From Lautropia sp. (lineage in GTDB: Bacteria > Pseudomonadota > Gammaproteobacteria > Burkholderiales > Burkholderiaceae_E), in NCBI GenBank assembly GCA_050248115.1, contig JBFWSZ010000009.1, positions 142,475 to 206,474 of the forward strand: a DNA stretch of 64,000 nt, in the 5' to 3' direction. The position numbers and the translations under genes are program-made. Shown piece after piece: positions 22,188 to 36,357 of this stretch. The notes beneath the pieces were generated by a model. It was not told the DNA's origin. It saw only the letters and a program-made list of their open reading frames with translations, and searched no databases. Every line of letters starts with the position of its first letter. Position 1 is the first letter of the stretch.

Positions 22188-22192
22188 GCGAG

Positions 22193-22957: not shown

Positions 22958-24570
22958 ACGCCCTCGGGGCGGGCGACTGCCTGGTCGCCGGTGCCGTCGC
23001 GGGCGCGGTCGAGTTCTGCGATGTCGAGGTGTCGGCGGCGCGAATCGATCCGATGACCGGGATCCTGCATGAACCGGGTCATCCGCTCGACGGGCACTGT
23101 CTCGCCCGGAAGGTGCTGGTCTGCCGAGGCGGCAAGGGCAGCAGCAGCGGTTCCTACGTACTGCTCAATCTTGCGCGGCGAGGGCTCGCGCCGACCGCCA
23201 TCCTCGTTGCGCAGGCCGACGCCGTGCTGGTCGCGGGCGCCGTGCTCGGCGACATCGCGCTGGTCGGCAATGTCGACCTGTCCCGCTTTCATCAGGGCCA
23301 GGTCCTGGATGTCGGTGTGGTCGCGGCTGACGATGCGCCGGGATTGATCCTCGAGCCCGCGCAGGCAGCGGCCCTTTCCGGTCGTCTCGGACGCGCCAAT
23401 CGACTCGCGATGCGGATGCTGGTCGCCGTGTGTCGCGCCTGCGGCGCCGACGCACTGATCCCCGTGGCCTCGGCGCACGTCGGGCTGTCGCTGTCGTCGA
23501 TGGGGGCGGCGGGCGTCGAATTCCTGGAGTCGCTTGCGGCCGAGGGGGTTCGCTTCTCGGTACCCACCACCACCAACGTGCTGTCCTTCGAGCGTACCGA
23601 CCGCGGCTCCGACGCCGCGTCGTTGCAGCACCGCGCGCTCGATGCGCTCGTCGCGATGGGTGCCAGCGCGAACTGCTCGTGCAATCCGTTCGCCCAGGGT
23701 CACGTTCCCCGGGCGGGAGAGGCGGTGGCCTGGAGCGAGTCCGCTACTGCGCCCTATGTCAACGGCGTGCTGGGCGCACGCACCAATCGCGAGGGGGCGA
23801 CGGCACTCGCCTCGGCCATCACCGGTGTGACGCCGCGCTACGGCATGCATCTGACTCGGGGCCGCGCCGCGGGTACACGGTATCGGCTCTCGGCAGGAGC
23901 CGTCTCGCGAGAGCAGTTGCACCTGCTGGGCGTCATCATCGGCCGCGACGCGGGCCCGGGCGTGCCGACGCTGGATGGGCTCGATCCCGCGATACCCCGC
24001 GACTGGCTCTTCGGCTTCAGTGCGTCGCTGGCGACCTACTCGACGGCGGCGATGTTCCACGCCGTGGGCATCACGCCAGAGGCACCGAGTCTCGCCGCAC
24101 TCTATCCCGACGGCGTCCCGGATGCGATCGACATCGGAGAAGCCGACTTCGCATCGGCGCAGCTACGCTGGGCGCCCGACGGTTCGGTGCCGGACTTCGT
24201 CGTCCTCGGTTGCCCGCACGCGACTCGCGAGCGCATCGAAGAGATCCGACGACTCCTGGAAGGCGTGCGGGTTCGCCCCGAGACGACGTTCTTCCTCCAC
24301 ACGCACGCCGAGGCGAAGGAGGCGGCGCGTCGTTCGGGCGATCTCGAGGTGCTGGAGGCCGCGGGCGTACGGGTCACTGCAGATACCTGCATGTACGTGT
24401 CGCTTGCGCGATTCCCGAACGGCGCCACCGTGATGACCGATTCGGCCAAGATGGCGTTCCTGCTGTCGACCCGCGGGCTTCGCCCCGCGCTTGCCGGCGT
24501 CCAGGCCTGCGTGCGCGCGGCCAGCCTGGGCCCGCGCCCGGGCATCGGGGCCGATCCCCTGCCAGCCTGA
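22954..24570 (+). CDS. Single-chain aconitase X (AcnX): DUF126 swivel-like domain fused N-terminally to a DUF521 catalytic-like domain
   Basis: ATG at 22954 (ATGA overlap with the SDR stop) in ORF 22390-24570, 538 aa. The N-terminal ~130 aa carry KVLVCRGGKGSSSGSYVLLNLARRGLAPTAILVAQADAVLVAGAVLGDIALV (DUF126-like). The rest carries LIPVASAHVGLS...GVEFLESL...VPTTTNV...APYVNGVLGARTNREG...VLGCPHAT...DTCMYV (DUF521-like). Confidence 0.8.
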   Translation: MNALGAGDCLVAGAVAGAVEFCDVEVSAARIDPMTGILHEPGHPLDGHCLARKVLVCRGGKGSSSGSYVLLNLARRGLAPTAILVAQADAVLVAGAVLGDIALVGNVDLSRFHQGQVLDVGVVAADDAPGLILEPAQAAALSGRLGRANRLAMRMLVAVCRACGADALIPVASAHVGLSLSSMGAAGVEFLESLAAEGVRFSVPTTTNVLSFERTDRGSDAASLQHRALDALVAMGASANCSCNPFAQGHVPRAGEAVAWSESATAPYVNGVLGARTNREGATALASAITGVTPRYGMHLTRGRAAGTRYRLSAGAVSREQLHLLGVIIGRDAGPGVPTLDGLDPAIPRDWLFGFSASLATYSTAAMFHAVGITPEAPSLAALYPDGVPDAIDIGEADFASAQLRWAPDGSVPDFVVLGCPHATRERIEEIRRLLEGVRVRPETTFFLHTHAEAKEAARRSGDLEVLEAAGVRVTADTCMYVSLARFPNGATVMTDSAKMAFLLSTRGLRPALAGVQACVRAASLGPRPGIGADPLPA

Positions 24571-24635: not shown

Positions 24636-25637
24636 CTATTGGAGCTTGATGTCGGCGGTCTTGATGACGTCTGCCCACTTCTTGATTTCGGACTCGACGA
24701 AGGCGCCGAACTCGGTGCTCGAACTGGCGACCACGTTTACCCCCCACCCCTTCAGCTTCTCGTTGACTTCGGGCTTGTTGATCACCTTCACGAAGGCGGC
24801 GTTCAGGCGGTCGAGCACCGGCTTCGGCATGCCGGCGGGCCCGAAGATGCCGTGCCACGAGCCGGCGACGTAGCCCGGTACGGTTTCGCCGATGCTCGGC
24901 ACGTCCGGCAGGAGTGGCGAGCGCTTCGGGCTCGTGATGCCCAGTACCTTGGCCTTTCCGTTCTTGATCAGTGGCAACGCGGCCGGGGTGTTCAGGAAGA
25001 TGAAGGAAATCTGCCCGCCGACGAGATCGATGATGCCGGGTGCGTCACCCCGATAGGGAACGTGCGTCATGCGGATGCCCGCCATGTGGGCGAACAACTC
25101 GGTCGCGAGCTGATTCGACGAACCGGGTCCCCCGGATCCGAAATTGAGCTTGCCGGGATTGGCTTTCGCGTAGGCGACGAGTTCGGGGATCGTGTTCGGC
25201 GGGAAGGCCTTGTTTGCGGTGACCGCCATCGGCACGGTTCCGATCAGCGTGATGAAGGTGAAGTCCTTCACCGGATCGTATGGCACGTTGGGGTTCAGCG
25301 AATTGTTGATCGCGTGCCCGGAGGGCGCGAGCAGGATCGTGTACCCGTCCGGCTCCGATCTCGCGACGTAGTCGGTGCCGATCATGCCGTTGGAGCCGAC
25401 CCTGTTCTCGACGACGACGGGTTGCCCGAGTTCCGGGGTGAGGTGCTGTGCGAGCAGTCGTGCGATCACGTCCGAGGTGCCGCCGGCCGAAAAGGCCGCG
25501 ATCAGTCGGACGGGTTTGGTCGGATAGGACTGCGCATGCGACAACGAGGCGGCCGTGGCCAGTGCGGCAACGACCAAGCCCCTGGCAAATGCGCCTATTC
25601 CAGCTTTGCACCTGATTCCTTGACGGCCTTGGACCAT
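24636..25637 (-). CDS. Bug-family TTT substrate-binding protein
   Basis: ORF 24636-25817. The mature part reads SYPTKPVRLIAAFSAGGTSD...VENRVGSNG...DGYTILL...FGSGGPGSSNQL...HVPYRGDA. The start is uncertain. The ATG at 25637 overlaps the upstream Bug gene by 43 nt; TTG at 25577 is an alternative. Confidence 0.8.
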   Translation of the reverse strand: MVQGRQGIRCKAGIGAFARGLVVAALATAASLSHAQSYPTKPVRLIAAFSAGGTSDVIARLLAQHLTPELGQPVVVENRVGSNGMIGTDYVARSEPDGYTILLAPSGHAINNSLNPNVPYDPVKDFTFITLIGTVPMAVTANKAFPPNTIPELVAYAKANPGKLNFGSGGPGSSNQLATELFAHMAGIRMTHVPYRGDAPGIIDLVGGQISFIFLNTPAALPLIKNGKAKVLGITSPKRSPLLPDVPSIGETVPGYVAGSWHGIFGPAGMPKPVLDRLNAAFVKVINKPEVNEKLKGWGVNVVASSSTEFGAFVESEIKKWADVIKTADIKLQ

Positions 25638-26557
25638 TTCTTGATCTCCTCTTCGATGAATGCGCCGGTCTGCTCGGGCGACTGGACGACCGGGTTTGCC
25701 CCCCGGCTGGCCAGCAAGGCCTTCGTTTCGGGCGCTTGCAGGAATCCGTTGACCGCCTGGTTCAGGCGTGCAACCACGTCCTTGGGTGTGCCGGCAGGCG
25801 CGACGAGCGCGAACCACGGCGATGCGGACAACTCCGGATAGCCCAGCTCGGCGAGGGTCGGCACGTCGGGCAGCAGCTCGGTCCGCTTGGCGGATGCCAC
25901 TGCCATCGGGTGCAGTCGTGAACTCCGGATATGCCCGATCACGGCCGGCAGGTTCTCGAAGTCGATGTCGACCTGACCGCCCATGAGATCGATGATGGCC
26001 GGCCCGGTGCCCTTGTACGGGATCATGTTCACCGTGATCCCGGTGCGCAGGCGGAACAGTTCGGAGAGCAGGTGGTGCATGGAGCCCAGCGCCGGTATGG
26101 CGATCCGCAATGCACCGGGATTGGCCTTGGCGTGCGCGACGACTTCGCCGATCGTCCTGGGCTTGAACCCCGGATACGACACCGCGACCACGGTGACGTC
26201 GGCGATCATCGCGACCGGGGCGAAATCCTTGCGCACGTCGTAGGGAACCCTCTTGAACAGGTCGAGCGCGACTGCGAGCGGACCCGAGGACGACAGCAGC
26301 AGCGTGTAGCCGTCGGGCTCCGACTTGGCGACGAAGTCGGCGCCGATCGTGCCGCCGGCCCCGCTGCGGTTCTCGACGATGAACGGCTGGCCCAGCGCCT
26401 TCTGCAGCCGCTCGGCCGTGATGCGGCCCAGGATGTCGTTAGTGCCGCCCGGCGGGTACGGGACGACGATCTTCACGCTCCGGGTCGGATACGCCTGTGC
26501 GAAGACGAAACTGGAAAAAAGCAGCGCGCACAACGCCGGTACAAGGCGCCAGTTCAT
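25595..26557 (-). CDS. Bug-family TTT substrate-binding protein
   Basis: ATG at 26557 (MNWRLVPALCALLFSSFVFAQAYPTRSVKIVVPYPPGGTNDILGR...) within ORF 25595-26635. GGAGA RBS. Confidence 0.88.
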   Translation of the reverse strand: MNWRLVPALCALLFSSFVFAQAYPTRSVKIVVPYPPGGTNDILGRITAERLQKALGQPFIVENRSGAGGTIGADFVAKSEPDGYTLLLSSSGPLAVALDLFKRVPYDVRKDFAPVAMIADVTVVAVSYPGFKPRTIGEVVAHAKANPGALRIAIPALGSMHHLLSELFRLRTGITVNMIPYKGTGPAIIDLMGGQVDIDFENLPAVIGHIRSSRLHPMAVASAKRTELLPDVPTLAELGYPELSASPWFALVAPAGTPKDVVARLNQAVNGFLQAPETKALLASRGANPVVQSPEQTGAFIEEEIKKWSKAVKESGAKLE

Positions 26558-26687
26558 CTCAGTCTCCTCTCGTTCGAATAGGCCCGATTGTCCGCAGAAA
26601 CGTCCGGTGTTGGGACCGACATGCGAAACTCGCACTGCACCATCTGCCTCTATCTTTCACGCTACCGACTCGTGAGGGATCGCCCAG

Positions 26688-27848
26688 ATGGCGCTCGACT
26701 TCAGGTTCTCGCCGGAGCAGGAGACGTTCCGTGCGCAGGTGCGCGAATTCGCGCGCAACGAGATCCAGCCGTATCTCGCGGACTGGGACGAGCGAGAGGA
26801 GATGCCGTGGCCCGCCATCCGGAAGATGGGCGAGGCGGGTCTGCTCGGGATCATCGCGCCGGGTCGTCTCGGCGGGCAGGCGAAGGACTACATCACCCTC
26901 GGCATCGCGGTCGAGGAGGTGGCGCGGGTGGACAACAGCTGCGCGATGATCCTGTCGATGCAGAACACGCTGGCGACGCTGATTCCCGGGTGGGGCGACG
27001 ATACCGTCCGCGAGGTCGTGCGGGGTCGTCAGCTCCTGTGCATCGCGACTTCCGAGGCCGAGGCCGGGTCGGACGTCTCGAACATGCGCACGACTGCCCG
27101 CGTCGAAGACGGGCACTTCGTCGTCTCGGGACAGAAGATCCACGTCAGCCTGATGCCGGGTGCCACCGTCATGGGCGTGTCGGCGCGCGTGACCGACGGC
27201 GATGGCAGGGGCAAGATCCATTTCCTGCGCGTGCCGGCGGCGGATCCGGGCGTGAGTTGCGAGCTGATGCCCGAGATGGGCCTGCGCTCTCACCAGCTCG
27301 CGATCGTGAACCTGAAGGACGTGCGGATCCCGATGACCGACGTCCTCGGCGCGAAGGGCGAGGGAAAGGCGTTGCTGTACGCGCGCTGGAACGTCTCGAG
27401 GTGCCTGACCGCGCTCAACGCGCTCGGTGCCGCCCAGCAGGTGCTGGACGACTCGATCGACTTCGTGCGCAGGAAGCACGTCTACGGTCGACCGATCGGG
27501 ATGAATCAGGCGATCAGCTTCCCGCTGGTCGAGCATGCGACCCGCGTCGAGGCGTGCCGCCTGCTGGCATACAAGGGGTTGTGGATGAACGACCGCGGCG
27601 AGAACGCGGCCCGCGAGGCCGGGATGGCGAAGTGGAGTTCGGTCACGTTCTCGATCCAGGCGGTCTACGACTGTCTGCAGATGCACGGTGCCGCCGGGTA
27701 CCTCAAGGATCTGTCGCTGGAGCGACGCTACCGGGATCTGCTGGGCCTGACGTTCACCGGCGGAACGATTAACGTGATGAAGATGATCGTCGTCAAGGAA
27801 CTGCTGGGCACCGAGTTCATGGGGATCGCGAATGGCCCGGAGCATTGA
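26688..27848 (+). CDS. Acyl-CoA dehydrogenase-fold protein, atypical (no Glu at either canonical catalytic-base position), paralogue B
   Basis: 386 aa. Colinear with, and by eye roughly two-thirds identical to, the 19672-20838 product. The C-terminal segment reads RDLLGLTFTGGTINVMK. GAGGGA RBS. Confidence 0.85.
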   Translation: MALDFRFSPEQETFRAQVREFARNEIQPYLADWDEREEMPWPAIRKMGEAGLLGIIAPGRLGGQAKDYITLGIAVEEVARVDNSCAMILSMQNTLATLIPGWGDDTVREVVRGRQLLCIATSEAEAGSDVSNMRTTARVEDGHFVVSGQKIHVSLMPGATVMGVSARVTDGDGRGKIHFLRVPAADPGVSCELMPEMGLRSHQLAIVNLKDVRIPMTDVLGAKGEGKALLYARWNVSRCLTALNALGAAQQVLDDSIDFVRRKHVYGRPIGMNQAISFPLVEHATRVEACRLLAYKGLWMNDRGENAAREAGMAKWSSVTFSIQAVYDCLQMHGAAGYLKDLSLERRYRDLLGLTFTGGTINVMKMIVVKELLGTEFMGIANGPEH

Positions 27849-27851
27849 ATC

Positions 27852-29432
27852 GTGACGCCGATGACGCCCGACGGGCTCGACACGCTGGCATCGGGTTCGG
27901 GTGAATGGGCGCTGTTCGACGTGCGCGAGCCCGGCGAGGCGGATGCGGGTCATATCTTCGGTGCCACGTTCCTGCCCAGGCGCCAGCTCGAGCGGCGCGT
28001 GGCAGACCTGGTCCAGCGACGCGAGACGACGGTGGTCCTGTACGACGAGGGTGGCCCGCGTGCCGGACTGGCTGCCGACACGCTCGAGCGCCACGGATAC
28101 ACCGACGTGCGAGTCCTGCAGGGGGGAACTGCGGCGTGGACCCGCGCCGGACGCGAGCTGACCCGTGGCAGCAATGTGCCGAGCAAGCTGTTCGGCGAGG
28201 AAGTCTACGAGCGGCACGGGGTTCCCCAGCTGCCGGTGACGACGCTCAAGTCCTGGCAGGACGACGGGCGACGGCACCTCGTGTGCGACATCCGCACGCC
28301 CGACGAGTACGCGGCGTCGCGCATTCCCGGTGCCCGTGGTGCCTTCGGCGTGGATCTGGCACGCGTGGCGGGCGATCTTCGCAAGGCAGGCGCACCGATC
28401 GTCGTGCATTGCGCCGGGCGCACCAGGAGCATCATCGCGTGCCAGAGCCTTCGCGCGCTCGGCGTCGACGATGTGCATGCGCTCGAGAACGGGACCATGG
28501 GCTGGCAGCTCGCCGGCCTTGCGCTCGAGACCGGGGCGGCGAAGGGTGAGCTGGTGCCTAGTCGCGAGAGCGACGCCGACGGTGCAAGCAGGGCCCGGGC
28601 GCTGGCCGAGTCGGTCGGTGTCACCGCCATCGGCGCCGACGACCTGGCGGCACATCTGGCATCGCGCCGCGACAAGCGCGAGAACTGCTACATCTTCGAT
28701 GTCCGCCAGCTCGACGAGTTCATCGACGGACACATCGACGGCGCGATCGCGCTGCCCGGCGGACTCGCCATCCAGCGCGCCGACGAGTTCATGCCGGTGC
28801 GCCGCGCCTGCACGATCCTGGTCGACATCGGGGAGGCGCGTGCCTGCCTTGCCGGCTACTGGCTCCGGCGCATGGGGCACTCGGATGTCCGATTCCTGCA
28901 AGGGGGCCTGGACGCGTGGCGCTCGAGCGGGCGCGCCCTCGCGCAGGGCCGGGGACGCTCGACGCCGCTCGGTGCGCAGGAGGCGGCCGACATGCCCCGG
29001 ATCAGTCCGGCCGAACTGGCCAGCCGTCCCGGCGCGCTGGTGCTCGACGTCGACACGAGCCGGTACTTCGGCGAGGCGCGCGTACCCGGCGCGGTGTGGT
29101 TGCCCTACGGCTGGCTGGAAACCCGGATCGGCGAGCACGTCCCGGACAGGCGCGCGGCGGTCGTGCTGACCTGCCACGACGGCGTGCTGTCAGGCTACGC
29201 AGCCGTCAACCTCGCGCGTCTCGGCCACGTCGACGTGAGGGTACTGGATGGCGGGGTGAGGGCATGGGCGAAGCAGGGGAATCGGATCGAGCGCGGCTGG
29301 CCGGCCGATCTGCCTGCGCCGCACGACCTGGTCGTGCCGCCGTATCAGTCGGATCTCGAGTCGATGGCGGCCTATCTCGAATGGGAGCAGCGGCTCACCG
29401 CGGACCGCCACCGGGCTGTTTCGAATTCGTGA
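27852..29432 (+). CDS. Four-domain rhodanese-like sulfurtransferase
   Basis: 526 aa; GTG at 27852 or ATG at 27861. Four rhodanese repeats with active-site loops YDEGGPRA (Asp, inactive), HCAGRTRS (Cys), VDIGEARA (Asp, inactive) and TCHDGVLS (Cys). Each repeat ends in ..L.GG..AW...G. Confidence 0.85.
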   Translation: MTPMTPDGLDTLASGSGEWALFDVREPGEADAGHIFGATFLPRRQLERRVADLVQRRETTVVLYDEGGPRAGLAADTLERHGYTDVRVLQGGTAAWTRAGRELTRGSNVPSKLFGEEVYERHGVPQLPVTTLKSWQDDGRRHLVCDIRTPDEYAASRIPGARGAFGVDLARVAGDLRKAGAPIVVHCAGRTRSIIACQSLRALGVDDVHALENGTMGWQLAGLALETGAAKGELVPSRESDADGASRARALAESVGVTAIGADDLAAHLASRRDKRENCYIFDVRQLDEFIDGHIDGAIALPGGLAIQRADEFMPVRRACTILVDIGEARACLAGYWLRRMGHSDVRFLQGGLDAWRSSGRALAQGRGRSTPLGAQEAADMPRISPAELASRPGALVLDVDTSRYFGEARVPGAVWLPYGWLETRIGEHVPDRRAAVVLTCHDGVLSGYAAVNLARLGHVDVRVLDGGVRAWAKQGNRIERGWPADLPAPHDLVVPPYQSDLESMAAYLEWEQRLTADRHRAVSNS

Positions 29433-29491
29433 ACCCTCGCGTGCATCCGCGCCCCTAGTATTGGTCGATCCCATCCCTGACTGGAAAGCGA

Positions 29492-30658
29492 ATGAATTTC
29501 GAACTGACGGCGACGCACAAGAAGGTCTACGAGACGGTGGGCGAGATTGCGCGAGACAGATTCGTCGCGCGCGCCGCGATCGCGGACCAGACGGCCAGCA
29601 CCCCGGTCGAGAATCTGCGCGACCTGCACGACGCGGGCCTGCTCGGCCTGACCGTCTCCGGCGAGTATGGCGGCATGGACAGCGGGTGCGCGGGAAAGGA
29701 CCCGTTGCTCTACCTGCTCGCCGTCGAGCAGACGGCACGCTACTGCATGTCGACCGCGCAGTGCCTGCACATCCACCTGCACGGCGCGCACTACGTCGAC
29801 AACGTCGGGACGGCGAAGCAGCGTGCGCGGATCCTGGGCGCGGTGGTCGAGCAGGGGGCCCTGCTGAACGCGACCGGCAGCGAGCCGGGTCGCACGTCCC
29901 GAGGGCTGTACAACCTGATCACCATCGCCGATCGGGTGGAAGGCGGGTACAAGATCAGCGGATTGAAGAACTACGCAACGCTTGGCGACGTCGTCGACTA
30001 CAACATCATCTTTGCCGGCATGCGCGACAAGGAGGGGTCGGAAGGCCACCTCGGTGTGGCCCTGCCCAAGGACACGCCCGGACTGAAGGTCGTCGCGGGG
30101 TCCTGGAATCCGATCGGCATGCGGGGTGCCGCCAGCCCGACCCTTCGACTGGACGACTGTTACGTGCCCGACGAACTGGTTCTCGGCGCGCCCGGCGTCT
30201 TCCCGAAGGAGCGCTGGCAGGCCCGCTTCCATCTCAGCTTTGCCGCACAGTACCTGGGAGGGGCCGAGGGCATCTTCGACATCCTCAAGGACTATCTGCC
30301 CAAGCGTGGAACCGCCGGTGATGCCTATGCCCAGCTTCGAATGGGCGAGATACGGGTCGGTATCGATTCGGTGCGCTGGATGATCTATCGGGCTGCCTGG
30401 CTCTGGACGCAGGCGGACCGCGTGCAGGCCGAGTTGTTCTCGCTGGCGGCCAAGCATCGGGCGATCGAGAACGCCGTCGCGGTCATGGACAAGGCGGCGC
30501 AGATCGCCGGATCGAGCGCGTTCTGGGCCGACTCGACGATGTCGCGGTTCTACCGGGACATGCGCATCCACACGTTGCACGAGAATCTGGACAAGACCGC
30601 CGCGACGCTCGGCAAGTACCATCTCGGCCAGGAATTCGACACCACCGCCCGGCTGTAG
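29492..30658 (+). CDS. ACAD-fold group-D flavin-dependent monooxygenase (DszC/SfnB-like oxygenase component)
   Basis: 388 aa. ACAD fold without the YEGT motif. The C-terminus ...FYRDMRIHTLHENLDKTAATLGKYHLG resembles the DszC-type ...RTHSLHDP... tail as I recall it. An HpaC-type flavin reductase follows directly. Confidence 0.7.
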   Translation: MNFELTATHKKVYETVGEIARDRFVARAAIADQTASTPVENLRDLHDAGLLGLTVSGEYGGMDSGCAGKDPLLYLLAVEQTARYCMSTAQCLHIHLHGAHYVDNVGTAKQRARILGAVVEQGALLNATGSEPGRTSRGLYNLITIADRVEGGYKISGLKNYATLGDVVDYNIIFAGMRDKEGSEGHLGVALPKDTPGLKVVAGSWNPIGMRGAASPTLRLDDCYVPDELVLGAPGVFPKERWQARFHLSFAAQYLGGAEGIFDILKDYLPKRGTAGDAYAQLRMGEIRVGIDSVRWMIYRAAWLWTQADRVQAELFSLAAKHRAIENAVAVMDKAAQIAGSSAFWADSTMSRFYRDMRIHTLHENLDKTAATLGKYHLGQEFDTTARL

Positions 30659-30662
30659 CGCG

Positions 30663-31145
30663 ATGGAGAGCCGGGAGTTGCGCAATGCCTTCGGGTGCTT
30701 CCCCACCGGGGTGGCGGTCGTCGCCTCGCGCGCGTCGAATGGTGCACTGGTCGGACTGACGGTGAACTCGATCGCGCCGGTCGCCCTCGTTCCCGCCCGC
30801 CTGCTCTGGAGCCTGGCGTCGACGTCGACGAGCCGGGCCGTCTTCGATGCTGCGCCGTACTTCACCGTCAATGTGCTGGGCGAGGACCAACTCGCGCTGG
30901 CGCGGCAGATGGCGTCGAAGGCATCGGACAGGTTCGCCGGCGTCGACTGGCGACCGGCGTCGGTGTCCGGCCTGCCGCTGCTCGCGGGCTGCATCGCGAG
31001 CTTCGAATGCCGCCGCAGCTCCACGGTGGAAATCGGCGACCACGTCGTCTTCGTCGGGGACATCGTCGATTTCGAGGAATCCGGCGGGCCGCCGTTGCTC
31101 TATCGCTCGGGTCGATACTCGCGCATCCTCGCGGAGGCTTCGTGA
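30663..31145 (+). CDS. NAD(P)H-flavin reductase (HpaC/flavin_reduct family)
   Basis: 160 aa. LRNAFGCFPTGVAVVAS....G.LVGLTVNS...VSL.P..LLWSL...S... and ...GDHVVFVGDIVDF are typical. Confidence 0.85.
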   Translation: MESRELRNAFGCFPTGVAVVASRASNGALVGLTVNSIAPVALVPARLLWSLASTSTSRAVFDAAPYFTVNVLGEDQLALARQMASKASDRFAGVDWRPASVSGLPLLAGCIASFECRRSSTVEIGDHVVFVGDIVDFEESGGPPLLYRSGRYSRILAEAS

Positions 31146-32536
31146 GCCGCGAACACCCGCTGTCGCCCGAAGTCCACTTCGCGCGGCACGACGACGACCT
31201 CTCGCGGGACTACTGGAATCCGCAGCGCGAGACGATGCCCGCGGATCGGATGGCGGCGCTTCAGTTCGAGAAGCTCAAGCGCCAGCTCGACTACCTCGCG
31301 TGCCACTCGGACTTCTATCGGACGAAGTTCAGGGACGCCGGATTCGATCCGGGCGATCTTCACCGGATCGAGGACCTGGCAGCGTTGCCCTTCACCACGA
31401 AGGCCGAGCTTCGAGAGGCGCAGGAGGCGGCGCCACCGTTCGGCTCGCACCAGGCGGCACCGATGGATCGGATCGTCCGCATCACGTCGACAGCGGGCAC
31501 GACCGGCCGCCCGGTGTTCCAGGGCTATACGCGAGAAGACACCCTGCGTCGCAACGAGAGCATCGCGCGCGGCCTCTGGGGCTTTGGCGTGCGCCCCGGC
31601 GACCGGGTGATCAACGGTTTCGCGCTCAGCATGTTCAATGCCGGCATTCCCTTCTGCGCGGCGATCGAGCATCTCGGCGCGCTGGACGTGCCGGTGGGCG
31701 CCGAGCGCAAGGCCGAAGGCATGCTCAGGATCGCGCACGAGGTCAAGGCCACCGTGTGGATCGGCACGCCCTCGTTCGCCGCCTATCTCGCAGAGCGGTG
31801 CGAGGACGTGCTCGGCATCCCGCCGCACGAGCTCGGCCTTCGCGTCGTGTGCGGCGGTGGCGAGTCGGGGTTCGAATTGCCGTCGTTCCAGAAGCGAATG
31901 GAGGAGGCATTCGGCACCCGGCACGTCTACGACTGGGCGTCGACGTCCGATGCGCACCCCAACGTCTTTGCCCACTGCCGGTATCGAAACGGCAAGCACC
32001 AGCTGACACCGGACTTCGCACTCGTGCAGCTGATCGACATGGCGAGCGGCGAAGTCAAGCCGATGCACGACGGCGCCGAAGGCGAGTACATCTTCACGCA
32101 TCTCGATCGGCAGTCCTGCGGGCTGGTCCGCTATCGCACCGGGGACATACTCAGGGTTCGGACCGGCGCCTGCGAATGCGGTCGCACCGGCTTCCGGATG
32201 GACATCGTCGGGCGGGCGGACGACATGCTCCTCGTGCGCGGCGTGAACGTCTTTCCATCCGCGCTCCAGAGCGTCGTCGACCGTTTCGCACCCAAGGTCG
32301 CCGGCAGGATCCAGGTGGTGCTGCCGCGTCCAGGGCCGCGGGTCGATCCGCCGGTTCGCATGCGCGTCGAGCATGCGCAAGGGCTGTCGGAGGTCGAGCT
32401 CGGCACGCTCAAGGCGGCCATCGAGGCGGCGATCCGCAGCGATCTCTCGGTGACGGCGAACGTCCAACTGCTCTCTCCCGGCACCGTGGTCCGGACCGAG
32501 ACAAAGACCCGATTCGTGGTCGTCGAACCGCAATGA
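31142..32536 (+). CDS. Phenylacetate-CoA ligase-like (PaaK / coenzyme F390 synthetase family) adenylating enzyme
   Basis: GTG at 31142 (GTGA overlap with the reductase stop) in ORF 30695-32536. Contains QFEKLKRQLDYLACHSDFYRTKF...IEDLAALPFTTKAEL...ITSTAGTTGRP...VRYRTGD...GRADDMLLVRGVNVFPS. Confidence 0.82.
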   Translation: MSREHPLSPEVHFARHDDDLSRDYWNPQRETMPADRMAALQFEKLKRQLDYLACHSDFYRTKFRDAGFDPGDLHRIEDLAALPFTTKAELREAQEAAPPFGSHQAAPMDRIVRITSTAGTTGRPVFQGYTREDTLRRNESIARGLWGFGVRPGDRVINGFALSMFNAGIPFCAAIEHLGALDVPVGAERKAEGMLRIAHEVKATVWIGTPSFAAYLAERCEDVLGIPPHELGLRVVCGGGESGFELPSFQKRMEEAFGTRHVYDWASTSDAHPNVFAHCRYRNGKHQLTPDFALVQLIDMASGEVKPMHDGAEGEYIFTHLDRQSCGLVRYRTGDILRVRTGACECGRTGFRMDIVGRADDMLLVRGVNVFPSALQSVVDRFAPKVAGRIQVVLPRPGPRVDPPVRMRVEHAQGLSEVELGTLKAAIEAAIRSDLSVTANVQLLSPGTVVRTETKTRFVVVEPQ

Positions 32537-33057
32537 GAGCGCTGAGGGATCCCGAATCGGAGACCCCCGACCTGCGACGTGCGCTGGCGCGCTTCGCCGC
32601 GGGCGTCGTCGTCGTCGCCTGCCGCGCCGAGGGTGGCTCGCCGCACTGCGTGATCGCGAGTGCCTTCAACTCGGTTTCGCTCGCACCCGCGTTGCTGCTC
32701 TGGTGCGTCCCGAGCAGCTCGCGCCGATGGCTGGGTATTGACCGGGCGTACGGCTTGAGCGTACTGTCCGTCGCTCAGGCGTCGCTGTTGAATCTCCAGG
32801 ATCTGCAGGCGACGCCGCTGGCCTGGGAGAGCGGCGAACTCCTGGGCGCGCCACTGCTGCGCGATGCGGCGGCATGGTTCGAGGTCGTCGCCGCCCACCG
32901 CATCGAGAATGGCGATCACGATCTCTATCTCGCTCAGGTCGCCGGGCTCGGCTATTCGACCCGGCAGACCGGTCTGCTGCGCTATTCGGGGCAGGTCGTG
33001 CGCTCGGGAGAGATCGCGCACGAGACCGAGCATCGGCAGACGCTCGTCACGCGTTGA
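32533..33057 (+). CDS. NAD(P)H-flavin reductase family protein, second copy
   Basis: ATG at 32533 (ATGA overlap) in ORF 30847-33057: LRRALARFAAGVVVVACRAEGGSPHCVIASAFNSVSLAPALLLWCV...GDHDLYLAQV. Confidence 0.78.
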   Translation: MRALRDPESETPDLRRALARFAAGVVVVACRAEGGSPHCVIASAFNSVSLAPALLLWCVPSSSRRWLGIDRAYGLSVLSVAQASLLNLQDLQATPLAWESGELLGAPLLRDAAAWFEVVAAHRIENGDHDLYLAQVAGLGYSTRQTGLLRYSGQVVRSGEIAHETEHRQTLVTR

Positions 33058-33161
33058 CGACCGGTTCGACGACGTACGGATTCCGCTGCACGCCAGCTCG
33101 AGGCTACCCTTGCAGCCGGCAGCCCAGCATTCACCGAGCGATTCGGCCAGGAGGAGCGTCC

Positions 33162-33977
33162 ATGGGAGGACTGGAGTTGCCAGGCGTGCTGAAGCGCGGG
33201 AAGTCCGAGGCCGAGAATGATCGGCAGTTCGCTTCCACGCTCGGTCGTGGCATGGATGTCCTGCGATGCTTCACGGCCGCGCAGTCGGTACTCGGGAACA
33301 AGGACATCGCGCTGCGCACCGGGCTGCCGAAGCCGACGGTGTCGCGGCTCACCTACACGCTGACATCGCTGGGGTATCTGCGACATCTGCCGCGGATCGG
33401 AAAGTACGAACTGGGCAGTGCCGTCCTGGCGATCGGGTATCCGCTGCTCGCGAACATTCCGGTACGACAGCGCGCCAGGGTCGAGATGATCGAACTCGCC
33501 GAGTATTCCCGTGGCTGGGTCTCGCTCGGCATGCGCGAACGGCTCAACATGGTCTACATCGAGACGGCGCGATCGAGGGAAGTGCTCGATTCGAAGCCCG
33601 ACATCGGCCAGACGTTCCCGATCCTCATGTCGGCTATGGGCCGCGCCTACCTCGCCGGGCTGGACGCGCTGGAACGCGATGCCGTCCTGAACCACCTGCG
33701 TGTCAAGGCGCCGGAACAATGGGCGAAGCACTCCTGCAAGGTCGAGTCCAGCCTCGAGGACTTCCGGGCAAGGGGCTTCTGCATGCATCACGGCGACTTC
33801 AACCCGCACGTGCATACCGTCGCGGTTCCGATGCGGCGTCGCGGCGATGCCGACATCCTGGTCTTCAACTGCGCGGTGCCGATCCAGGTGTTGCAGCGCG
33901 GGCAGCTCGAGTCCGACGTCGGACCACGGCTGGTCGCGATGGTGAAGGCCGTCGAGGCAGGTCTCGACCGTCACTAG
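33162..33977 (+). CDS. IclR-family transcriptional regulator
   Basis: ATG at 33162 after GGAGGAG in ORF 32874-33977. HTH STLGRGMDVLRCFTAAQSVLGNKDIALRTGLPKPTVSRLTYTLTSLGYL, followed by an IclR effector domain. Confidence 0.88.
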   Translation: MGGLELPGVLKRGKSEAENDRQFASTLGRGMDVLRCFTAAQSVLGNKDIALRTGLPKPTVSRLTYTLTSLGYLRHLPRIGKYELGSAVLAIGYPLLANIPVRQRARVEMIELAEYSRGWVSLGMRERLNMVYIETARSREVLDSKPDIGQTFPILMSAMGRAYLAGLDALERDAVLNHLRVKAPEQWAKHSCKVESSLEDFRARGFCMHHGDFNPHVHTVAVPMRRRGDADILVFNCAVPIQVLQRGQLESDVGPRLVAMVKAVEAGLDRH

Positions 33978-34027
33978 GCACACCGCGGGCGCGCCCGCGA
34001 TCGTCTCGGCGCGAAGGAGCGTAGCGG

Positions 34028-35128
34028 ATGGAGGGTGTTCTGTCGGGCATCAGGGTCGTGGAGCTGGCGGCGATCGGACCGATCCCGTGGGCGATGATGC
34101 TGGCTGCCGACATGGGGGCATCGGTGATTCGCATCACGCGGCCGGGCACGGCCGACGATGTCTTGCCGACGGCACGGGGGCGCGTCACGGTCGAACTCGA
34201 CCTGAAGTCCGAGGCCGGTCTCGACACCTGCAAGCGGTTTCTCGCGCGTGCCGATGTGCTGGTCGAGGGTATGCGCCCCGGCGCGCTCGAGCGGCTCGGC
34301 CTCGCGCCGGAGGTGTGCCATTCGATCAATCCGGCGCTGGTGATCGGCCGCATGACTGGTTGGGGTCAGGCAGGGCCCATGGCGGCGCTGGCCGGACACG
34401 ACATCAACTACATCGCCCTGAACGGCGTGCTCCACGCCGTCGGACGGGATCGACCGACCCCACCGCTCAATCTGGTCGCGGACTTCGGCGGCGGCGGAAC
34501 CTTTCTGCTGATCGGCATCCTGTCCGCGCTGCTGAGCGCCCGACGAACACGACGGGGCGAGGTGGTCGACGCCGCCATGATCGACGGCTCGGCCAGCCTC
34601 TCGACGATGGTGTACGAGCGCCTGATGCAGGGCCGCTGGAGCGACCGTCGCGGCACCAATTCGCTCGACGGCGGAACGCCGTGGTACGACGTCTACGCGA
34701 CGAGCGACGGATGCTACATGGCTGTCGGGTGCAACGAGCCGCACTTCTACGAGGCCTTCCTCGACGCGCTCGGGCTGGATCCGGCGACATTGCCGGGCAG
34801 ACACGCGCGCGAGCAATGGCCGGCGCTGCGCGCGGCATTCGCGCAGCGCTTCGCGCAGCGTACGCGGGCGGAGTGGATCGCGGTGTTCGACGGCGTCGAC
34901 GCCTGCGTGACGCCGGTACTGTCGCTTCTCGAGGCGCCCGAGCACCCGCACAATGCGGCGCGCGGTACCTACATGTGCTGGGACGGCCATCCGATACCCT
35001 CGCCGGCGCCTCGGTTCGTCGGCCGTCCGAACGAGCCGGCGGCGCGTTCCGCGAAGGCGACGCCGGAAGAAGCGCTGGCAACCTGGTCGCCGGATCCACC
35101 TGCGCGGGTGCTCGGGAACGCGCGCTAG
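34028..35128 (+). CDS. CaiB/BaiF family III acyl-CoA transferase (alpha-methylacyl-CoA racemase-like)
   Basis: 366 aa. LSGIRVVELAAIGPIPWAMMLAADMGASVIRI......ADVLVEGMRPGALERLGL...NP.LV.GR.TGWGQ.GP....AGHDINY.AL.G are hallmark motifs. Confidence 0.88.
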   Translation: MEGVLSGIRVVELAAIGPIPWAMMLAADMGASVIRITRPGTADDVLPTARGRVTVELDLKSEAGLDTCKRFLARADVLVEGMRPGALERLGLAPEVCHSINPALVIGRMTGWGQAGPMAALAGHDINYIALNGVLHAVGRDRPTPPLNLVADFGGGGTFLLIGILSALLSARRTRRGEVVDAAMIDGSASLSTMVYERLMQGRWSDRRGTNSLDGGTPWYDVYATSDGCYMAVGCNEPHFYEAFLDALGLDPATLPGRHAREQWPALRAAFAQRFAQRTRAEWIAVFDGVDACVTPVLSLLEAPEHPHNAARGTYMCWDGHPIPSPAPRFVGRPNEPAARSAKATPEEALATWSPDPPARVLGNAR

Positions 35129-35325: not shown

Positions 35326-36357
35326 ATGTCGGTGAAGCCGAAGGAGAGCGCAGCGCCCGCCGGCAGGGCGGCGCCGGGGGCGGATCGGCCTGCGGTCGTC
35401 GAGCGTGGTGTGCCGGCCGTTCGCGCGACGACGCGGCTGCGTGCGTTGCTCGCGCAGGGGCGCACGCTTTTCGTGCCCGGCTGCTACAACGCGATGAGCG
35501 CGCGCGTGCTCGAGCACGTCGGCTTCCCGGCGGTCTACATGACCGGTTACGGCACGTCGCTGTCGTTGCTCGGCATGCCCGACGCGGGTCTGGCCACGAT
35601 GACCGAGATGCAGCTGAATGCGCGTTACATCGCCAACGCGGTGAGCGTGCCGGTGATCGCCGATTCGGACACGGGCTACGGCAACGCGATCAACGTGATG
35701 CGCTGCGTTCGCGAATACATCCAGACCGGGGTCGCGGCGATCCACCTGGAGGACCAGGTCGCGCCCAAGCGGTGCGGGCACGTCGCGGGACGCGAGGTCG
35801 TCGCGATCGACGAGGCGATCGGCAAGATCCGTGCTGCAGACGCCGCGCGCCGCGAGCTCGACCCGGATTTCGTGCTGATCGCGCGCAGCGACGCGCGTGG
35901 CGCCCACGGCGGATCGCTCGACGACGCGATCCGGCGCGTCAACCTGTACCTGGAGGCCGGCGCCGATCTCGCGTTCGTCGAAGGACCCGTCAGCATCGAA
36001 GAGGTCGAGCGGATCTGTCGCGACGTCCGCGGTCCCGTCTTCTACAACATGACCGGCGTGTCGCCGCGCATGAGCCTCGAGCAGATGCAGGCGCTGGGCA
36101 TCGCCATCACGATCACCGCCGGCACGACGATGCGCGCCACCCTGCAGGCGGTCTACGACGTCGCCGTGAAGCTTCGCGACGAAGGGCCGATGGCCGAGGC
36201 GGCGTTCATCGAAGGATTCCGCTCCCATCCGCTCGGCGACCTCCACACCTTCGCCGGCTTCGACCGGATCCGCGAGTGGGAGGAGGCGTTCCTGCCGGCC
36301 GAGCAGCTCGGCAAGTACGCCGGCGGCATCGGCCACATGCCCGAGAAGAAGCGCTGA
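35326..36357 (+). CDS. Isocitrate lyase / PEP mutase superfamily enzyme (methylisocitrate-lyase / oxaloacetate-decarboxylase-like)
   Basis: 343 aa. FVPGCYNAMSARVLEHVGFPAVYMTGYG...PVIADSDTGYGNAINV...GVAAIHLEDQVAPKRCGH..G are the catalytic motifs. Carries a ~35-aa Ala/Pro-rich N-terminal extension. Confidence 0.85.
   Translation: MSVKPKESAAPAGRAAPGADRPAVVERGVPAVRATTRLRALLAQGRTLFVPGCYNAMSARVLEHVGFPAVYMTGYGTSLSLLGMPDAGLATMTEMQLNARYIANAVSVPVIADSDTGYGNAINVMRCVREYIQTGVAAIHLEDQVAPKRCGHVAGREVVAIDEAIGKIRAADAARRELDPDFVLIARSDARGAHGGSLDDAIRRVNLYLEAGADLAFVEGPVSIEEVERICRDVRGPVFYNMTGVSPRMSLEQMQALGIAITITAGTTMRATLQAVYDVAVKLRDEGPMAEAAFIEGFRSHPLGDLHTFAGFDRIREWEEAFLPAEQLGKYAGGIGHMPEKKR

Follow-up and report, generated by a model that had tools for sequence, protein, structure and literature searches.

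Within the window (the whole 64,000-nucleotide stretch of Lautropia sp. DNA analysed here), we tentatively read positions 19672–35128 as a conserved and uncharacterised pathway that would take in an anionic sulfur-containing carboxylic acid, remove its sulfur and pass the carbon skeleton to central metabolism. The conserved gene set is larger than the six-gene core block (26688–33057), we found no publication on it in the literature, and its partner genes point to sulfur removal from an imported sulfur-containing organic acid. The four-step organosulfur scheme that the initial annotation drew from the core block holds up in the sulfur links of its rhodanese (RHD4) and of one ACAD-fold protein (ACAD2), but it omits the co-conserved PrpD-like protein, SDR, AcnX and CoA-transferase.

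Layout and extent of the cluster

Evaluating the core block, we confirmed the six genes, their overlaps, domains and quoted motifs and the IclR gene trailing them, with spacers of 3–59 nt. The first four genes are ORFs as called (Table 1), the ligase and FR2 genes are nested within longer mechanical ORFs, and the translations of all six are stop-free. ACAD1 ends with a TGA at 27846–27848 and RHD4 starts with the GTG at 27852, where the public record has it begin at another start codon, the ATG at 27861; ACAD2 is preceded by a 59-nt spacer, and 4-nt overlaps lie at GTGA (31142–31145) and ATGA (32533–32536). The domains found in the core proteins are three ACAD domains in each of two proteins, four rhodanese stretches in one, Flavin_Reduct twice (126 and 61 bits) and AMP-binding with AMP-binding_C_2. 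An ORF at 33266–34024 was rejected as a gene, being an out-of-frame artefact.

The cluster extends well beyond these genes, with an upstream limit at about 19672 and a downstream limit at 35128 at least. A pair of TctC genes occupies the equivalent position in six other loci, and on some contigs with the cluster a TRAP transporter stands in place of TctC. In two loci a single ACAD0-like gene comes first in one operon with genes for PrpD, SDR, CoA-transferase, AcnX, ACAD2, flavin reductase (FR), ligase and rhodanese. The PrpD-like protein was ruled out as a 2-methylcitrate dehydratase orthologue (46.7 bits vs a cut-off of 950). Whether the PrpB-like protein belongs to the system is uncertain, and its gene accompanies the cluster only here and in one other locus. 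Further along in the window, after the cluster, lies a NitT/TauT-type ABC transporter, which fits a link to sulfur; we found no thiol dioxygenase within the window, which counts against a sulfur pathway.

Table 1. Genes of the cluster and its immediate surroundings (positions in the window).
Feature	Position	Strand	Remarks
ACAD0, ACAD1 paralogue	19672..20838	+	65% identical to ACAD1; also without catalytic base (GVSR, TGGT)
MmgE/PrpD-family protein	20844..22187	+	Alongside ACAD2 in 9/12 well-flanked loci
Short-chain dehydrogenase/reductase (SDR)	22193..22957	+	Co-conserved in 8/12 loci
Aconitase X (AcnX) family (de)hydratase	22954..24570	+	Swivel and catalytic domains; in 5/12 well-flanked loci
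TctC/Bug-family periplasmic solute receptor	24636..25469	-	
TctC/Bug-family periplasmic solute receptor	25595..26476	-	Divergent from ACAD1; longest ORF to 26635
ACAD1, ACAD-fold protein	26688..27848	+	Short-chain ACAD-like fold
RHD4, four-domain rhodanese	27852..29432	+	PA2603 (PDB 1YT8) family
ACAD2, ACAD-fold protein	29492..30658	+	DszC-type C-terminal motif RIHTLHEN; candidate oxygenase of a two-component flavin monooxygenase
FR1, HpaC/StyB-type NAD(P)H:flavin reductase	30663..31145	+	4-nt spacer after ACAD2
Adenylate-forming CoA ligase	31142..32536	+	PaaK/F390-synthetase family
FR2, divergent flavin reductase paralogue	32533..33057	+	
IclR-family regulator	33162..33977	+	Also flanks the cluster in eight other loci
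Family III CoA-transferase	34028..35128	+	Within the cluster also in four other loci
PEP-mutase/isocitrate-lyase superfamily protein, PrpB-like	35326..36357	+	236 bits, below the cut-off of 354

Recurrence in other genomes

The gene set recurs in a dozen or more genomes and metagenome contigs, among them a Burkholderiales MAG, Pusillimonas, a plasmid of Variovorax sp. SRS16 and many metagenome contigs, and because it does so with its gene order shuffled and in unrelated genomes, the arrangement is not due to chance. What recurs is a base-less ACAD (ACAD1 or ACAD0), RHD4, ACAD2, an HCL/PaaK-type ligase, the PrpD-like protein and the SDR, commonly joined by FR, AcnX and a family III CoA-transferase. 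Counting over the 12 loci anchored on ACAD2 that extend 4 kb or more to both sides, we found RHD4 in 10, PrpD in 9, SDR and FR in 8 each, and the ligase and a base-less ACAD in 7 each; co-conservation of the rhodanese gene with its neighbours, set beforehand as a check, was thus borne out. Among the best 120 RHD4 clusters, 23 lay on a contig of the same size as one carrying a best-120 ACAD2 cluster.

ACAD1 belongs to a family without the catalytic base

ACAD1 carries no Glu at either canonical base position, as had been noted, with Gly358 at the MCAD/SCAD site (TFTGGT vs IYEGT) and Ser237 (NVSR) where IVD-type relatives have N[GA]ER; the third known position, that of Ch1DH-type enzymes, is Thr94. 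Asp and Glu are absent from the MCAD, IVD and Ch1DH positions in all 120 of 120 ACAD1 relatives, and by these alignments base loss is a conserved trait of the entire family, setting ACAD1 apart from normal dehydrogenases. Its FAD and CoA motifs are near-canonical and the short-chain ACAD-like fold is kept. Arg233, His152 and Cys239 show little or no variation, His152 standing at what we take to be the site of the Trp/Phe in the KxWIT of normal ACADs. Two invariant acidic residues, Asp82 and Glu123, occur in normal ACADs as well, according to alignments.

The comparison with the 3-sulfinopropionyl-CoA desulfinase of Advenella survives in the shared base-less ACAD-fold trait, with Gln246 and Gly366 presumably being the desulfinase counterparts of Ser237 and Gly358, but not as family membership, for which ACAD1 was rejected at 177 bits vs a cut-off of 600. 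The desulfinase structure (5af7) ranks about 49th against ACAD1 by sequence and lies beyond the top 50 by fold, a distance that counts against a sulfur pathway. Naming this desulfinase as the only precedent for a base-less ACAD-fold enzyme proved incomplete, because Ch1DH lacks the canonical Glu too and shows that the base can move (PMC9293079).

ACAD2 as a candidate two-component oxygenase

For ACAD2, the proposed DszC-like two-component reading gained support from its tail motif, from a flavin reductase gene that comes next after it in 23 of 44 orthologue loci, and from co-occurring sulfur-type genes. Its C-terminal 38 residues match only DszC/TdsC in the PDB, with the tail RFYRDMRIHTLHEN aligned to RFWRNVRTHSLHDP of DszC/TdsC. 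Opposite the second His in the tail of DszC stands His363, conserved in at least 99% of 120 relatives; Glu364, which aligns with the catalytic Glu of ACADs, is kept in 106 of them and replaced by Ser in 12 and by Asn in 2. Elsewhere, ACAD2 orthologues lie beside NtaA/DmoA(DszA)-family LLM monooxygenases, TauD, an SfnB-like protein, SsuA-like transporters and a sulfatase. Profile scores fall below the cut-offs for DszC (74 bits vs 850) and SfnB (94 bits vs 431), and a fold search did not tell ACADs and the DszC group apart. By sequence ACAD2 scores higher to ACADs than to DszC, SfnB or MsuC, which also counts against a sulfur pathway. FR2 is retained after the ligase in five loci and is present in a sixth.

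The rhodanese and the CoA ligase

RHD4 aligns with 1YT8 over 500 residues (1.7e-68). All four of its described loops (YDEGGPRA, HCAGRTRS, VDIGEARA, TCHDGVLS) are present, but of the two active-type loops in the alternating pattern ascribed to them, only the CAGRTRS loop of domain 2 carries a Cys that is invariant in the family; the domain-4 Cys is retained in 9 of 14 aligned members, and a C-terminal PPY...YL.WE tail is conserved. The link to sulfur is backed by family membership and by neighbourhoods: of 80 genome loci with RHD4 relatives, 30 have a CDO_I-type (cysteine-dioxygenase-type) thiol dioxygenase alongside, and a set of loci from Dehalococcoidia/SAR202 has a sulfite-oxidase-type molybdoenzyme there. 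The Bordetella bronchiseptica locus reads IclR, RHD4, CDO-like, CoA-transferase III, TctC. Rhodanese genes also adjoin the published Msdo and 3MDO genes (PMC5373536, PMC12947264), and deletion of the PA2603 homologue (tst) of P. protegens left 3-mercaptopropionate levels without significant change (PMC12947264), a result that weighs against the proposed pathway.

The ligase is adenylating and of the PaaK/F390-synthetase family, as annotated, but it is closer to 2-hydroxyisobutyryl-CoA synthetase (HCL, 6hdw), which among relatives of solved structure stands nearest to it, than to PaaK (full-length alignments of 6.7e-64 and 1.9e-57), and is HCL-like instead of arylacetate-type. It falls under every NCBIfam equivalog cut-off (PaaK, 211 of 646 bits).

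A tentative pathway and its alternatives

We infer the substrate, each catalytic step and the order of the steps as follows. The acid would enter through a tripartite tricarboxylate transporter served by the two TctC receptors, and ACAD2, working as a DszC-type two-component oxygenase on reduced flavin from FR1 (and FR2), would S-oxygenate it from thiol or thioether to sulfinate or sulfone. This step probably acts on the free acid, because one variant of the cluster, that with an LLM monooxygenase, has ACAD2 without any CoA ligase. The CoA thioester would then come from the HCL/PaaK-type ligase or from the family III CoA-transferase, and on it the base-less ACAD1 and ACAD0 may carry out a non-dehydrogenating reaction, the likeliest chemistry being C–S cleavage or desulfination analogous to that of the Advenella desulfinase and independently evolved. 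Arg233, which is invariant and sits a single helix turn ahead of the missing base, may hold an anionic group of the substrate. The PA2603-type rhodanese would handle the sulfur species (sulfite, sulfane sulfur or thiosulfonate) via Cys187, and the carbon skeleton would pass to the PrpD-like protein, SDR, AcnX and possibly the PrpB-like lyase.

Several neighbours would suit a sulfur-free polycarboxylate (an aminopolycarboxylate, imino acid or branched hydroxy acid), with ACAD2 and its reductase hydroxylating carbon or oxidising nitrogen, the ligase and ACADs forming a modified beta-oxidation, and the rhodanese an accessory unrelated to the substrate. Iminodisuccinate epimerase belongs to the MmgE/PrpD family and the NTA and EDTA monooxygenases to the NtaA family, and that enzymes of these families also use non-sulfur polycarboxylates counts against a sulfur pathway. 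The nearest solved relative of the ligase activates 2-hydroxyisobutyrate, AcnX is nearest to cis-3-hydroxy-L-proline dehydratase (262 bits), the transporters belong to the tricarboxylate, TAXI-TRAP and Dpp classes, and we found no sulfite exporter or sulfite oxidase linked to ACAD2-type clusters. We nonetheless consider this reading doubtful given the rhodanese kept in 10/12 loci, whose family has thiol dioxygenases and sulfite oxidases for partners, the DszC-type tail of ACAD2, and the TauD, SsuA-like, SfnB-like and sulfatase genes around ACAD2 orthologues. Sulfur might instead be inserted, the ligase-activated carboxylate and a rhodanese persulfide yielding a thiocarboxylate, as in MoeB/ThiF-rhodanese chemistry and thiocarboxylate siderophore synthesis. 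One common arrangement has the rhodanese gene directly after the ligase (eight loci), and the top NCBIfam matches of RHD4 are the rhodanese domains of MoeB/MoeZ proteins. A variant lacking the ligase keeps the rhodanese (four loci), however, a sulfur-carrier protein and a ThiF/MoeB domain are absent, the rhodanese family partners thiol dioxygenases, and uptake receptors with IclR, GntR or LysR regulators typify catabolic clusters, which together make insertion highly improbable.

Other alternatives concern ACAD1 itself. It could be an ordinary dehydrogenase, using a base located elsewhere or a substrate carboxylate, or it could pair with ACAD2 or a different ACAD in a heteromer and be the subunit that does no catalysis, an arrangement seen in the alpha2beta2 ACADs with which mycobacteria degrade steroids. 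The fold and near-canonical cofactor motifs would suit this, as would the Glu of ACAD2 aligned with the canonical base and the invariant Asp82 and Glu123, but these two are shared with normal ACADs, Glu364 of ACAD2 gives way to Ser or Asn in 14/120 relatives, and many loci have ACAD1 without ACAD2 or the reverse. His152, presumably replacing the Trp/Phe of KxWIT, also speaks against it, and we regard this explanation as unlikely even with the moved base of Ch1DH as precedent (PMC9293079). An oxygenase acting on the CoA ester with FR2-reduced flavin, by oxidative attack on the thioester or sulfur rather than as a hydrolytic desulfinase, would match two flavin reductases to two ACAD-fold proteins, and base loss suits an enzyme that abstracts no alpha-proton. 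The model would be TdaE, an ACAD-like flavoprotein resembling classical ACADs that oxygenates CoA esters (PMC8283759), but FR2 is absent from many ACAD1 clusters (six loci), and we judge this role quite improbable.

Relation to known systems

Sulfur removal as proposed here shares its logic with the 3-mercaptopropionate/3-sulfinopropionate pathway of Advenella mimigardefordensis DPN7 and Variovorax paradoxus TBEA6 (Mdo, Act or SucCD, the Acd desulfinase and the methylcitrate cycle), in which sulfur is oxygenated, a CoA thioester made and the C–S bond cut on a base-less ACAD-fold protein. Both cluster a family III CoA-transferase, two TctC genes and PrpD/aconitase/PrpB-type enzymes (PMC5373536, PMC6370202), the Advenella cluster holding mdo, acd, the CoA-transferase, two tctC genes and methylcitrate-cycle genes together (PMC5373536). 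In the window, by contrast, a flavin monooxygenase candidate replaces the CDO-type dioxygenase, ACAD1 is not orthologous to the desulfinase, which is not among its top structural matches, an HCL/PaaK-type ligase is used and a four-domain rhodanese is integral. The PrpD-like, AcnX and PrpB-like proteins are not methylcitrate-cycle orthologues, and methylcitrate synthase is absent.

With the Dsz '4S' system (DszC, DszA, DszB, DszD) and the Sfn/Msu monooxygenases, the candidate ACAD2 shares an ACAD fold, the R-x-H-[ST]-L-H-[DE] tail and a separate flavin reductase, and the second cluster variant, pairing ACAD2 with an NtaA/DmoA(DszA)-family LLM, resembles the DszC–DszA pairing. Unlike the members of these systems, ACAD2 is equally similar to true ACADs and DszC; unlike in Dsz, the compound attacked is probably an aliphatic polycarboxylate that has been imported, not an aromatic thiophene, and C–S cleavage in the window's variant would need CoA. 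RHD4 has the D/C/D/C loop pattern, CAGRTRS loop and YL.WE tail of 1YT8, but where the PA2602–PA2603 (3MDO–rhodanese) and Msdo–rhodanese pairs have a thiol dioxygenase, its partners are ACAD-fold proteins and a CoA ligase. By its sequence ACAD1 may join Ch1DH and TdaE as an ACAD-fold protein with chemistry off canonical alpha,beta-dehydrogenation, although the replacement base of Ch1DH, Asp91, is Thr94 in ACAD1. The ligase has the family and two-domain architecture of HCL (6HDW) and PaaK.

Gene layout and a recurrent gene set

All six reading frames proposed in the initial annotation exist and translate cleanly, and its junctions were borne out, including the 3-nt spacer between the ACAD-fold gene ACAD1 and the four-domain rhodanese gene RHD4, GTGA at 31142 and ATGA at 32533. 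The 3-nt spacer follows from a GTG start for the rhodanese and becomes 12 nt with the ATG at 27861, the start in the public record, while 59 nt lie upstream of ACAD2. An IclR regulator gene follows the cluster as described, and an ORF at 33266-34024 was discarded as an out-of-frame artefact of high G+C. Each domain call was confirmed by Pfam and NCBIfam, and none of the six proteins reached any NCBIfam equivalog cut-off in that search. The window matches contig JBFXBQ010000009.1 of assembly GCA_050183035.1, and its G+C of about 68% and numerous TctC/Bug receptor genes are characteristic of Burkholderiales. Promoter and terminator scans gave counts under random expectation, an Rfam search found no RNA elements, and short intergenic inverted repeats were unremarkable.

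Searching from three anchors (rhodanese, ACAD1 and ACAD2), we recovered a single gene set whose order is shuffled among relatives (L numbers denote their fetched loci). The order of the window, ACAD1, RHD4, ACAD2, (FR1), ligase, (FR2), where FR1 and FR2 are flavin reductases, recurs in L002, L090, L093 and L123 and, minus both reductase genes, in L001, L091 and L092. Another layout runs ACAD2, FR1, ligase, RHD4, with a base-less ACAD and the PrpD-like gene before or after (L101, L102, L105, L106, L127, L138). L102 and L127 each have one operon with the order base-less ACAD, PrpD-like, SDR, CoA-transferase III, AcnX, ACAD2, FR1, ligase, RHD4, which shows that window genes at 19672-24570 and 34028-35128 are part of the same system. 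Other orders occur on a Variovorax sp. SRS16 plasmid and on a 972-kb contig, where the transporter is of the TRAP type and the regulator of the GntR family.

The proposal had been staked in part on the rhodanese being co-conserved with its neighbours, and so it is: across 12 loci that were anchored on ACAD2 and extend 4 kb or more to either side of it (3 of them belonging to a variant with a luciferase-like monooxygenase and an aldolase), RHD4 was present in 10, PrpD-like in 9, SDR and flavin reductase in 8 each, ligase and base-less ACAD in 7 each, and AcnX in 5. As an indirect check, the longest contig equalled in size that of one of the top 120 ACAD2 clusters for 23 of the 120 top rhodanese clusters and 14 of the 120 top ACAD1 clusters. 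Within 23 long loci, sulfite exporter and sulfite oxidase genes were not linked to ACAD2 clusters, and the other recurrent neighbours were regulators and transporters only.

Features of the window and their positions (cut-offs are those of the matching profiles)
Feature	Position	Strand	Remarks
Separate block	556-17486		hydantoinase/oxoprolinase A and B, LysR regulator, four Asp/Glu/hydantoin-racemase-family genes, HMGL-like lyase, MaoC-like dehydratase, AMP-binding ligase, FAD_binding_4 oxidase, metallo-beta-lactamase-fold protein, RidA, two TctC receptors
Acetyl/propionyl-CoA-synthetase-like gene	17508-19496		175 nt upstream of ACAD0; 451 bits, cut-off 725
ACAD0	19672-20838		base-less ACAD-fold protein
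PrpD-like, SDR, AcnX	within 20844-24570		partner genes
ACAD1	26688-27848		base-less ACAD-fold protein
RHD4	27852-29432		four-domain rhodanese
ACAD2	29492-30658		DszC-like candidate oxygenase
FR1	30663-31145		flavin reductase
Ligase	31142-32536		
FR2	32533-33057		flavin reductase
IclR regulator	33162-33977		
CoA-transferase III	34028-35128		partner gene
PrpB-like	35326-36357		possible partner gene
NitT/TauT-family ABC transporter	36388-40880		just downstream of cluster; two permeases, ATPase (best matches TauB, SaoA), Zn-dependent alcohol dehydrogenase gene
SsuA-family binding protein	within 36388-40880		130 bits, cut-off 163.5
N,N-dimethylformamidase large-subunit homologue	42744-44999	-	DMFA2_C, 278 bits
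Molybdopterin oxidoreductase with Fe4S4 domain	56536-59151	+	

A family of ACAD-fold proteins without the catalytic base

Aligning ACAD1 with solved acyl-CoA dehydrogenases (ACADs), we found Gly358 opposite the catalytic Glu of MCAD and SCAD (TFTGGT vs IYEGT), and NVSR where ordinary ACADs adjoining rhodanese genes elsewhere read N[GA]ER, which places Ser237 at the IVD-type base position. A third base position, that of Ch1DH (7p98; base relocated to Asp91, PMC9293079), is taken by Thr94 in an ungapped helix alignment, which rules out that ACAD1 has its base moved to an Asp as in Ch1DH. The 120 cluster representatives examined, at 53-100% identity, all have Gly at position 358, 119 of them have Thr at position 94, and position 237 is distributed as S115/T4/A1, so that the absence of a Glu at either canonical position, as first read from this one protein, proves correct and family-wide. 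Arg233, His152 and Asp82 are invariant in the family, and Cys239 is present in 119 of the 120 representatives. The family is set apart from other ACADs, with scores of 493 and 424 bits followed by 335 and 297, and none above 250 thereafter (library clustered at 50% identity), and its four closest outgroups likewise carry neither Asp nor Glu at the base positions. ACAD0, a 65% identical paralogue in the window, has the same base substitutions. A large ACAD-like group at 26-37% identity to ACAD1 (P0368-P0409) mostly reads [IL][GA]DGT, with Asp at the MCAD-type position.

ACAD1 matches three Pfam ACAD domains (116, 93 and 58 bits), and its AlphaFold model (pLDDT 86) has short-chain and short/branched-chain ACADs as best Foldseek matches (SCAD, ACADSB, butyryl-CoA DH, MmgC), DszC-type proteins and 5af7, the structure of the Advenella desulfinase, being absent among the best 50. 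That desulfinase (AcdDPN7/AcdA) resembles ACAD1 in having no Glu or Asp at the IVD- and MCAD-type positions. ACAD1 is nevertheless not a close relative of it: 5af7 is missing from the best 50 fold matches, the score against the desulfinase profile NF042439 is 177.4 bits (cut-off 600), and the E-value to 5af7 is 3.5e-30, against 4.5e-57 for the best ACAD. Arg84 of AcdDPN7 is reportedly positioned at the sulfinate; the invariant Arg of the ACAD1 family is Arg233, which lies four residues, or one helix turn, before Ser237 and should therefore face the acyl pocket. From this helix geometry, the placement of Arg233 suggests that the ACAD1 substrate may bear an anionic group on its acyl chain. Even if a sulfur reading of the cluster fails, an enzymological explanation is called for, since a large ACAD family has consistently lost the base and otherwise kept its short-chain fold intact.

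ACAD2 as a candidate two-component monooxygenase

The assignment of ACAD2 as a DszC-like monooxygenase held for its tail motif and its partner flavin reductase; overall sequence and fold gave no preference for monooxygenases over dehydrogenases. By sequence ACAD2 is nearer short-chain ACADs (SCAD, E 2e-26) than DszC/TdsC (1e-14 to 3e-15), scores 94 bits against SfnB (cut-off 431) and 74 against DszC (cut-off 850), and matches the Pfam domains dh_1 and dh_2 at 49.7 and 47.9. When its model (pLDDT 89) was run through Foldseek, ACADs, DszC, TdsC and MAB_4123 came up in mixed order at about 1e-20, which leaves the fold not decisive, and a PDB search with just the C-terminal domain once more ranked ACADs first. 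The last 38 residues had no PDB matches besides DszC and TdsC, and these were weak (E 0.25-0.6). Here the DszC tail motif that the initial annotation had named was confirmed, RFYRDMRIHTLHEN of ACAD2 aligning, in this weak match, with RFWRNVRTHSLHDP, and the DszC-type tail R-x-H-[ST]-L-H-[DE] with its conserved His is present. This residue, His363, is conserved to at least 99% over 120 relatives, and a 20-sequence alignment shows it invariant together with Asn365 and Asp367. Glu364 aligns both with the catalytic Glu of ACADs and with the Asp in the LHDP of DszC, its position being E106/S12/N2 among the 120 relatives. The family is tight: it gave 204 matches, and identity is 57% or higher for the best 120.

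Two-component systems of the DszC/SfnB/MsuC kind have an NAD(P)H:flavin reductase as partner, and in the window FR1 starts 4 nt after ACAD2; a flavin reductase lies directly downstream of ACAD2 in 23 of the 44 orthologue loci with room for one. Pseudomonas typographi, Xanthobacter sp. V4C-4 and a number of metagenome contigs have ACAD2 without CoA ligase or ACAD1, and there its neighbours encode a luciferase-like monooxygenase of the NtaA/DmoA family (DszA-type), class II aldolase, PrpD-like, SDR and TctABC proteins, as well as TauD, an SfnB-like protein and SsuA-like binding proteins. The genes that ACAD2 faces in Azospirillum doebereinerae are those of a rhodanese, TauD and an SsuA-type ABC operon. 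Taken together, the tail motif, His363, the adjacent reductase and the DszA-type, TauD and Ssu contexts lead us to favour ACAD2 as a putative two-component monooxygenase, and, as it is also present in loci without ligase, the free acid is the probable substrate of the proposed S-oxygenation. A second cluster variant (L087, L089, L107-L110, L112, L119, L121, L122) combines ACAD2, an NtaA/DmoA-family monooxygenase, class II aldolase, 2-hydroxyacid dehydrogenase and TctABC, and lacks both CoA ligase and base-less ACAD.

The ligase and the four-domain rhodanese

The ligase, first called PaaK-type, does belong to the PaaK/F390-synthetase family and is not PaaK itself: its nearest solved relative is 2-hydroxyisobutyryl-CoA synthetase (HCL; 6hdw, 6.7e-64), ahead of PaaK (1.9e-57), it scores 211 bits against the PaaK equivalog (cut-off 646), and paa genes were not found near it in the window. 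Since HCL ranks ahead of PaaK, the substrate is no less likely to be a small aliphatic acid than an arylacetate.

RHD4 comprises four rhodanese stretches (Pfam) with a D/C/D/C loop pattern and aligns over 500 residues (1.7e-68) with PDB 1YT8, a 539-residue 'thiosulfate sulfurtransferase' that has the same loops and that we take to be PA2603 of Pseudomonas aeruginosa. In a 14-member alignment the sole invariant Cys is Cys187, in the domain-2 loop C[AS]GRTRS, while the domain-4 Cys is present in 9 members and the tail PPY...YL.WE is conserved; RHD4 has the four domains, loop pattern, C[AS]GRTRS loop and C-terminal tail of a PA2603-type protein. Scanning one genome per species revealed at least 585 relatives. 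Classical rhodanese chemistry includes the acceptance of sulfane sulfur by sulfinates to give thiosulfonates, with which a candidate role of RHD4 on sulfinates would fit.

Among 80 fetched rhodanese loci, the gene directly adjoins one for a CDO_I-type cupin of about 200 residues in 30, and a group of Dehalococcoidia/SAR202 loci has a sulfite-oxidase-type molybdoenzyme adjacent. RHD4, unlike the relatives in those 30 loci, stands without such a dioxygenase: a profile built from the 30 CDO-like neighbours found no CDO-type thiol dioxygenase in the window or the orthologous clusters, and a hidden one is ruled out; the same profile does detect an unannotated Bordetella gene. The pairing with thiol dioxygenases is in line with published work: mercaptosuccinate dioxygenase genes cluster with rhodanese genes in Variovorax and Advenella (PMC5373536), and the P. 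protegens genes homologous to PA2602 (3-mercaptopropionate dioxygenase) and PA2603 apparently form one transcription unit, deletion of the rhodanese gene having no significant effect on 3-mercaptopropionate (PMC12947264).

Pathway reading and alternatives

The best reading of the cluster, by guilt by association with two independent anchors, is that it catabolises or desulfurises an imported anionic organosulfur acid. One anchor is the rhodanese family, partnered by thiol dioxygenases and sulfite oxidases, and the other is the ACAD2 family, partnered by flavin reductases and by DszA-type, TauD, SfnB-like and SsuA-type genes. The Advenella/Variovorax route degrades 3-mercaptopropionate via 3-sulfinopropionyl-CoA, from a cluster of mdo, acd, a family III CoA-transferase gene, two tctC and methylcitrate-cycle genes (PMC5373536, PMC6370202). 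There the desulfinase gene clusters with those for a CDO-type 3-mercaptopropionate dioxygenase and a CoA-transferase III, whereas the window has the CoA-transferase III and no CDO-like ORF, and its PrpD-like, AcnX and PrpB-like proteins all score under the cut-offs of the methylcitrate enzymes. By analogy, the window cluster looks like a non-orthologous rebuild of this scheme, in which a flavin monooxygenase would take the place of the dioxygenase, an HCL-type ligase would work alongside the CoA-transferase, and an independently base-less ACAD would replace the desulfinase. The Dsz pathway is a precedent sharing the logic of the proposed one. The parts are all from known superfamilies and the pathway logic has precedents; literature searches found no description of this gene combination.

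In its full form, which we put forward tentatively and regard as somewhat doubtful, the proposal is that ACAD1 represents a second independently evolved base-less ACAD family cleaving C-S bonds on CoA thioesters and ACAD2 a new DszC-like S-oxygenase family, which with the PA2603-type rhodanese would form an aliphatic, CoA-dependent counterpart of the 4S pathway for a natural organosulfur polycarboxylate and would be widespread in soil and marine proteobacteria, the sister variant using a DszA-like monooxygenase instead of the CoA branch. If true, this would add a new route by which common proteobacteria of soil, freshwater and marine habitats mineralise organosulfur acids, and a second case of the ACAD scaffold in non-redox C-S chemistry. 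It would also give two large unannotated families, base-less ACAD1 and tight ACAD2, their first functional setting, and provide a testable role for PA2603/1YT8 four-rhodanese proteins, whose structure has been known for years and whose function has not.

Close to the cluster, the window has a single gene of sulfur type, the NitT/TauT-type ABC transporter. The PrpD/MmgE and NtaA families also act on sulfur-free polycarboxylates, which would suit a sulfur-free polycarboxylate pathway; set beside the sulfur-linked partners of the two anchor families, such a pathway is one that we judge unlikely. For ACAD1 itself, an ordinary or heteromeric dehydrogenase would agree with the short-chain ACADs heading its structural matches and would have to operate without an acidic residue at the known base positions, and we see only a small chance of this. 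That ACAD1 is a TdaE-like oxygenase (PMC8283759) seems quite improbable to us; the base-less site would leave room for such chemistry. We give very little credence to a thiocarboxylate formed by ligase and rhodanese, two genes that do share the set, the ligase being absent from some ACAD2 loci.

Further observations

The acetyl/propionyl-CoA-synthetase-like gene upstream of ACAD0 does not accompany the cluster at other loci. In Xanthobacter tagetidis DSM 11602 (L020, 5618-15097) a PA2603-type rhodanese gene lies between genes for a flavin reductase, an IVD-type ACAD, an AMP-binding ligase and an SDR, with a 36%-identical ACAD2 relative also in the group and acyl-CoA carboxylase subunit genes as flanks. 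This locus is ruled out as the same system by its ordinary IVD-type ACAD, by the identity of only 36% of its ACAD2 relative and by the carboxylase setting; the species is known for growth on thiophene-2-carboxylate.

In Bordetella bronchiseptica (L081, L082; 9091-14526), genes for an IclR regulator, a four-domain rhodanese, a 214-aa protein, CoA-transferase III and TctC lie together in this order. The 214-aa protein has no Pfam match and matches the CDO profile at 1e-48, and some 4 kb downstream of this rhodanese operon are the genes for pertussis toxin (ptx).
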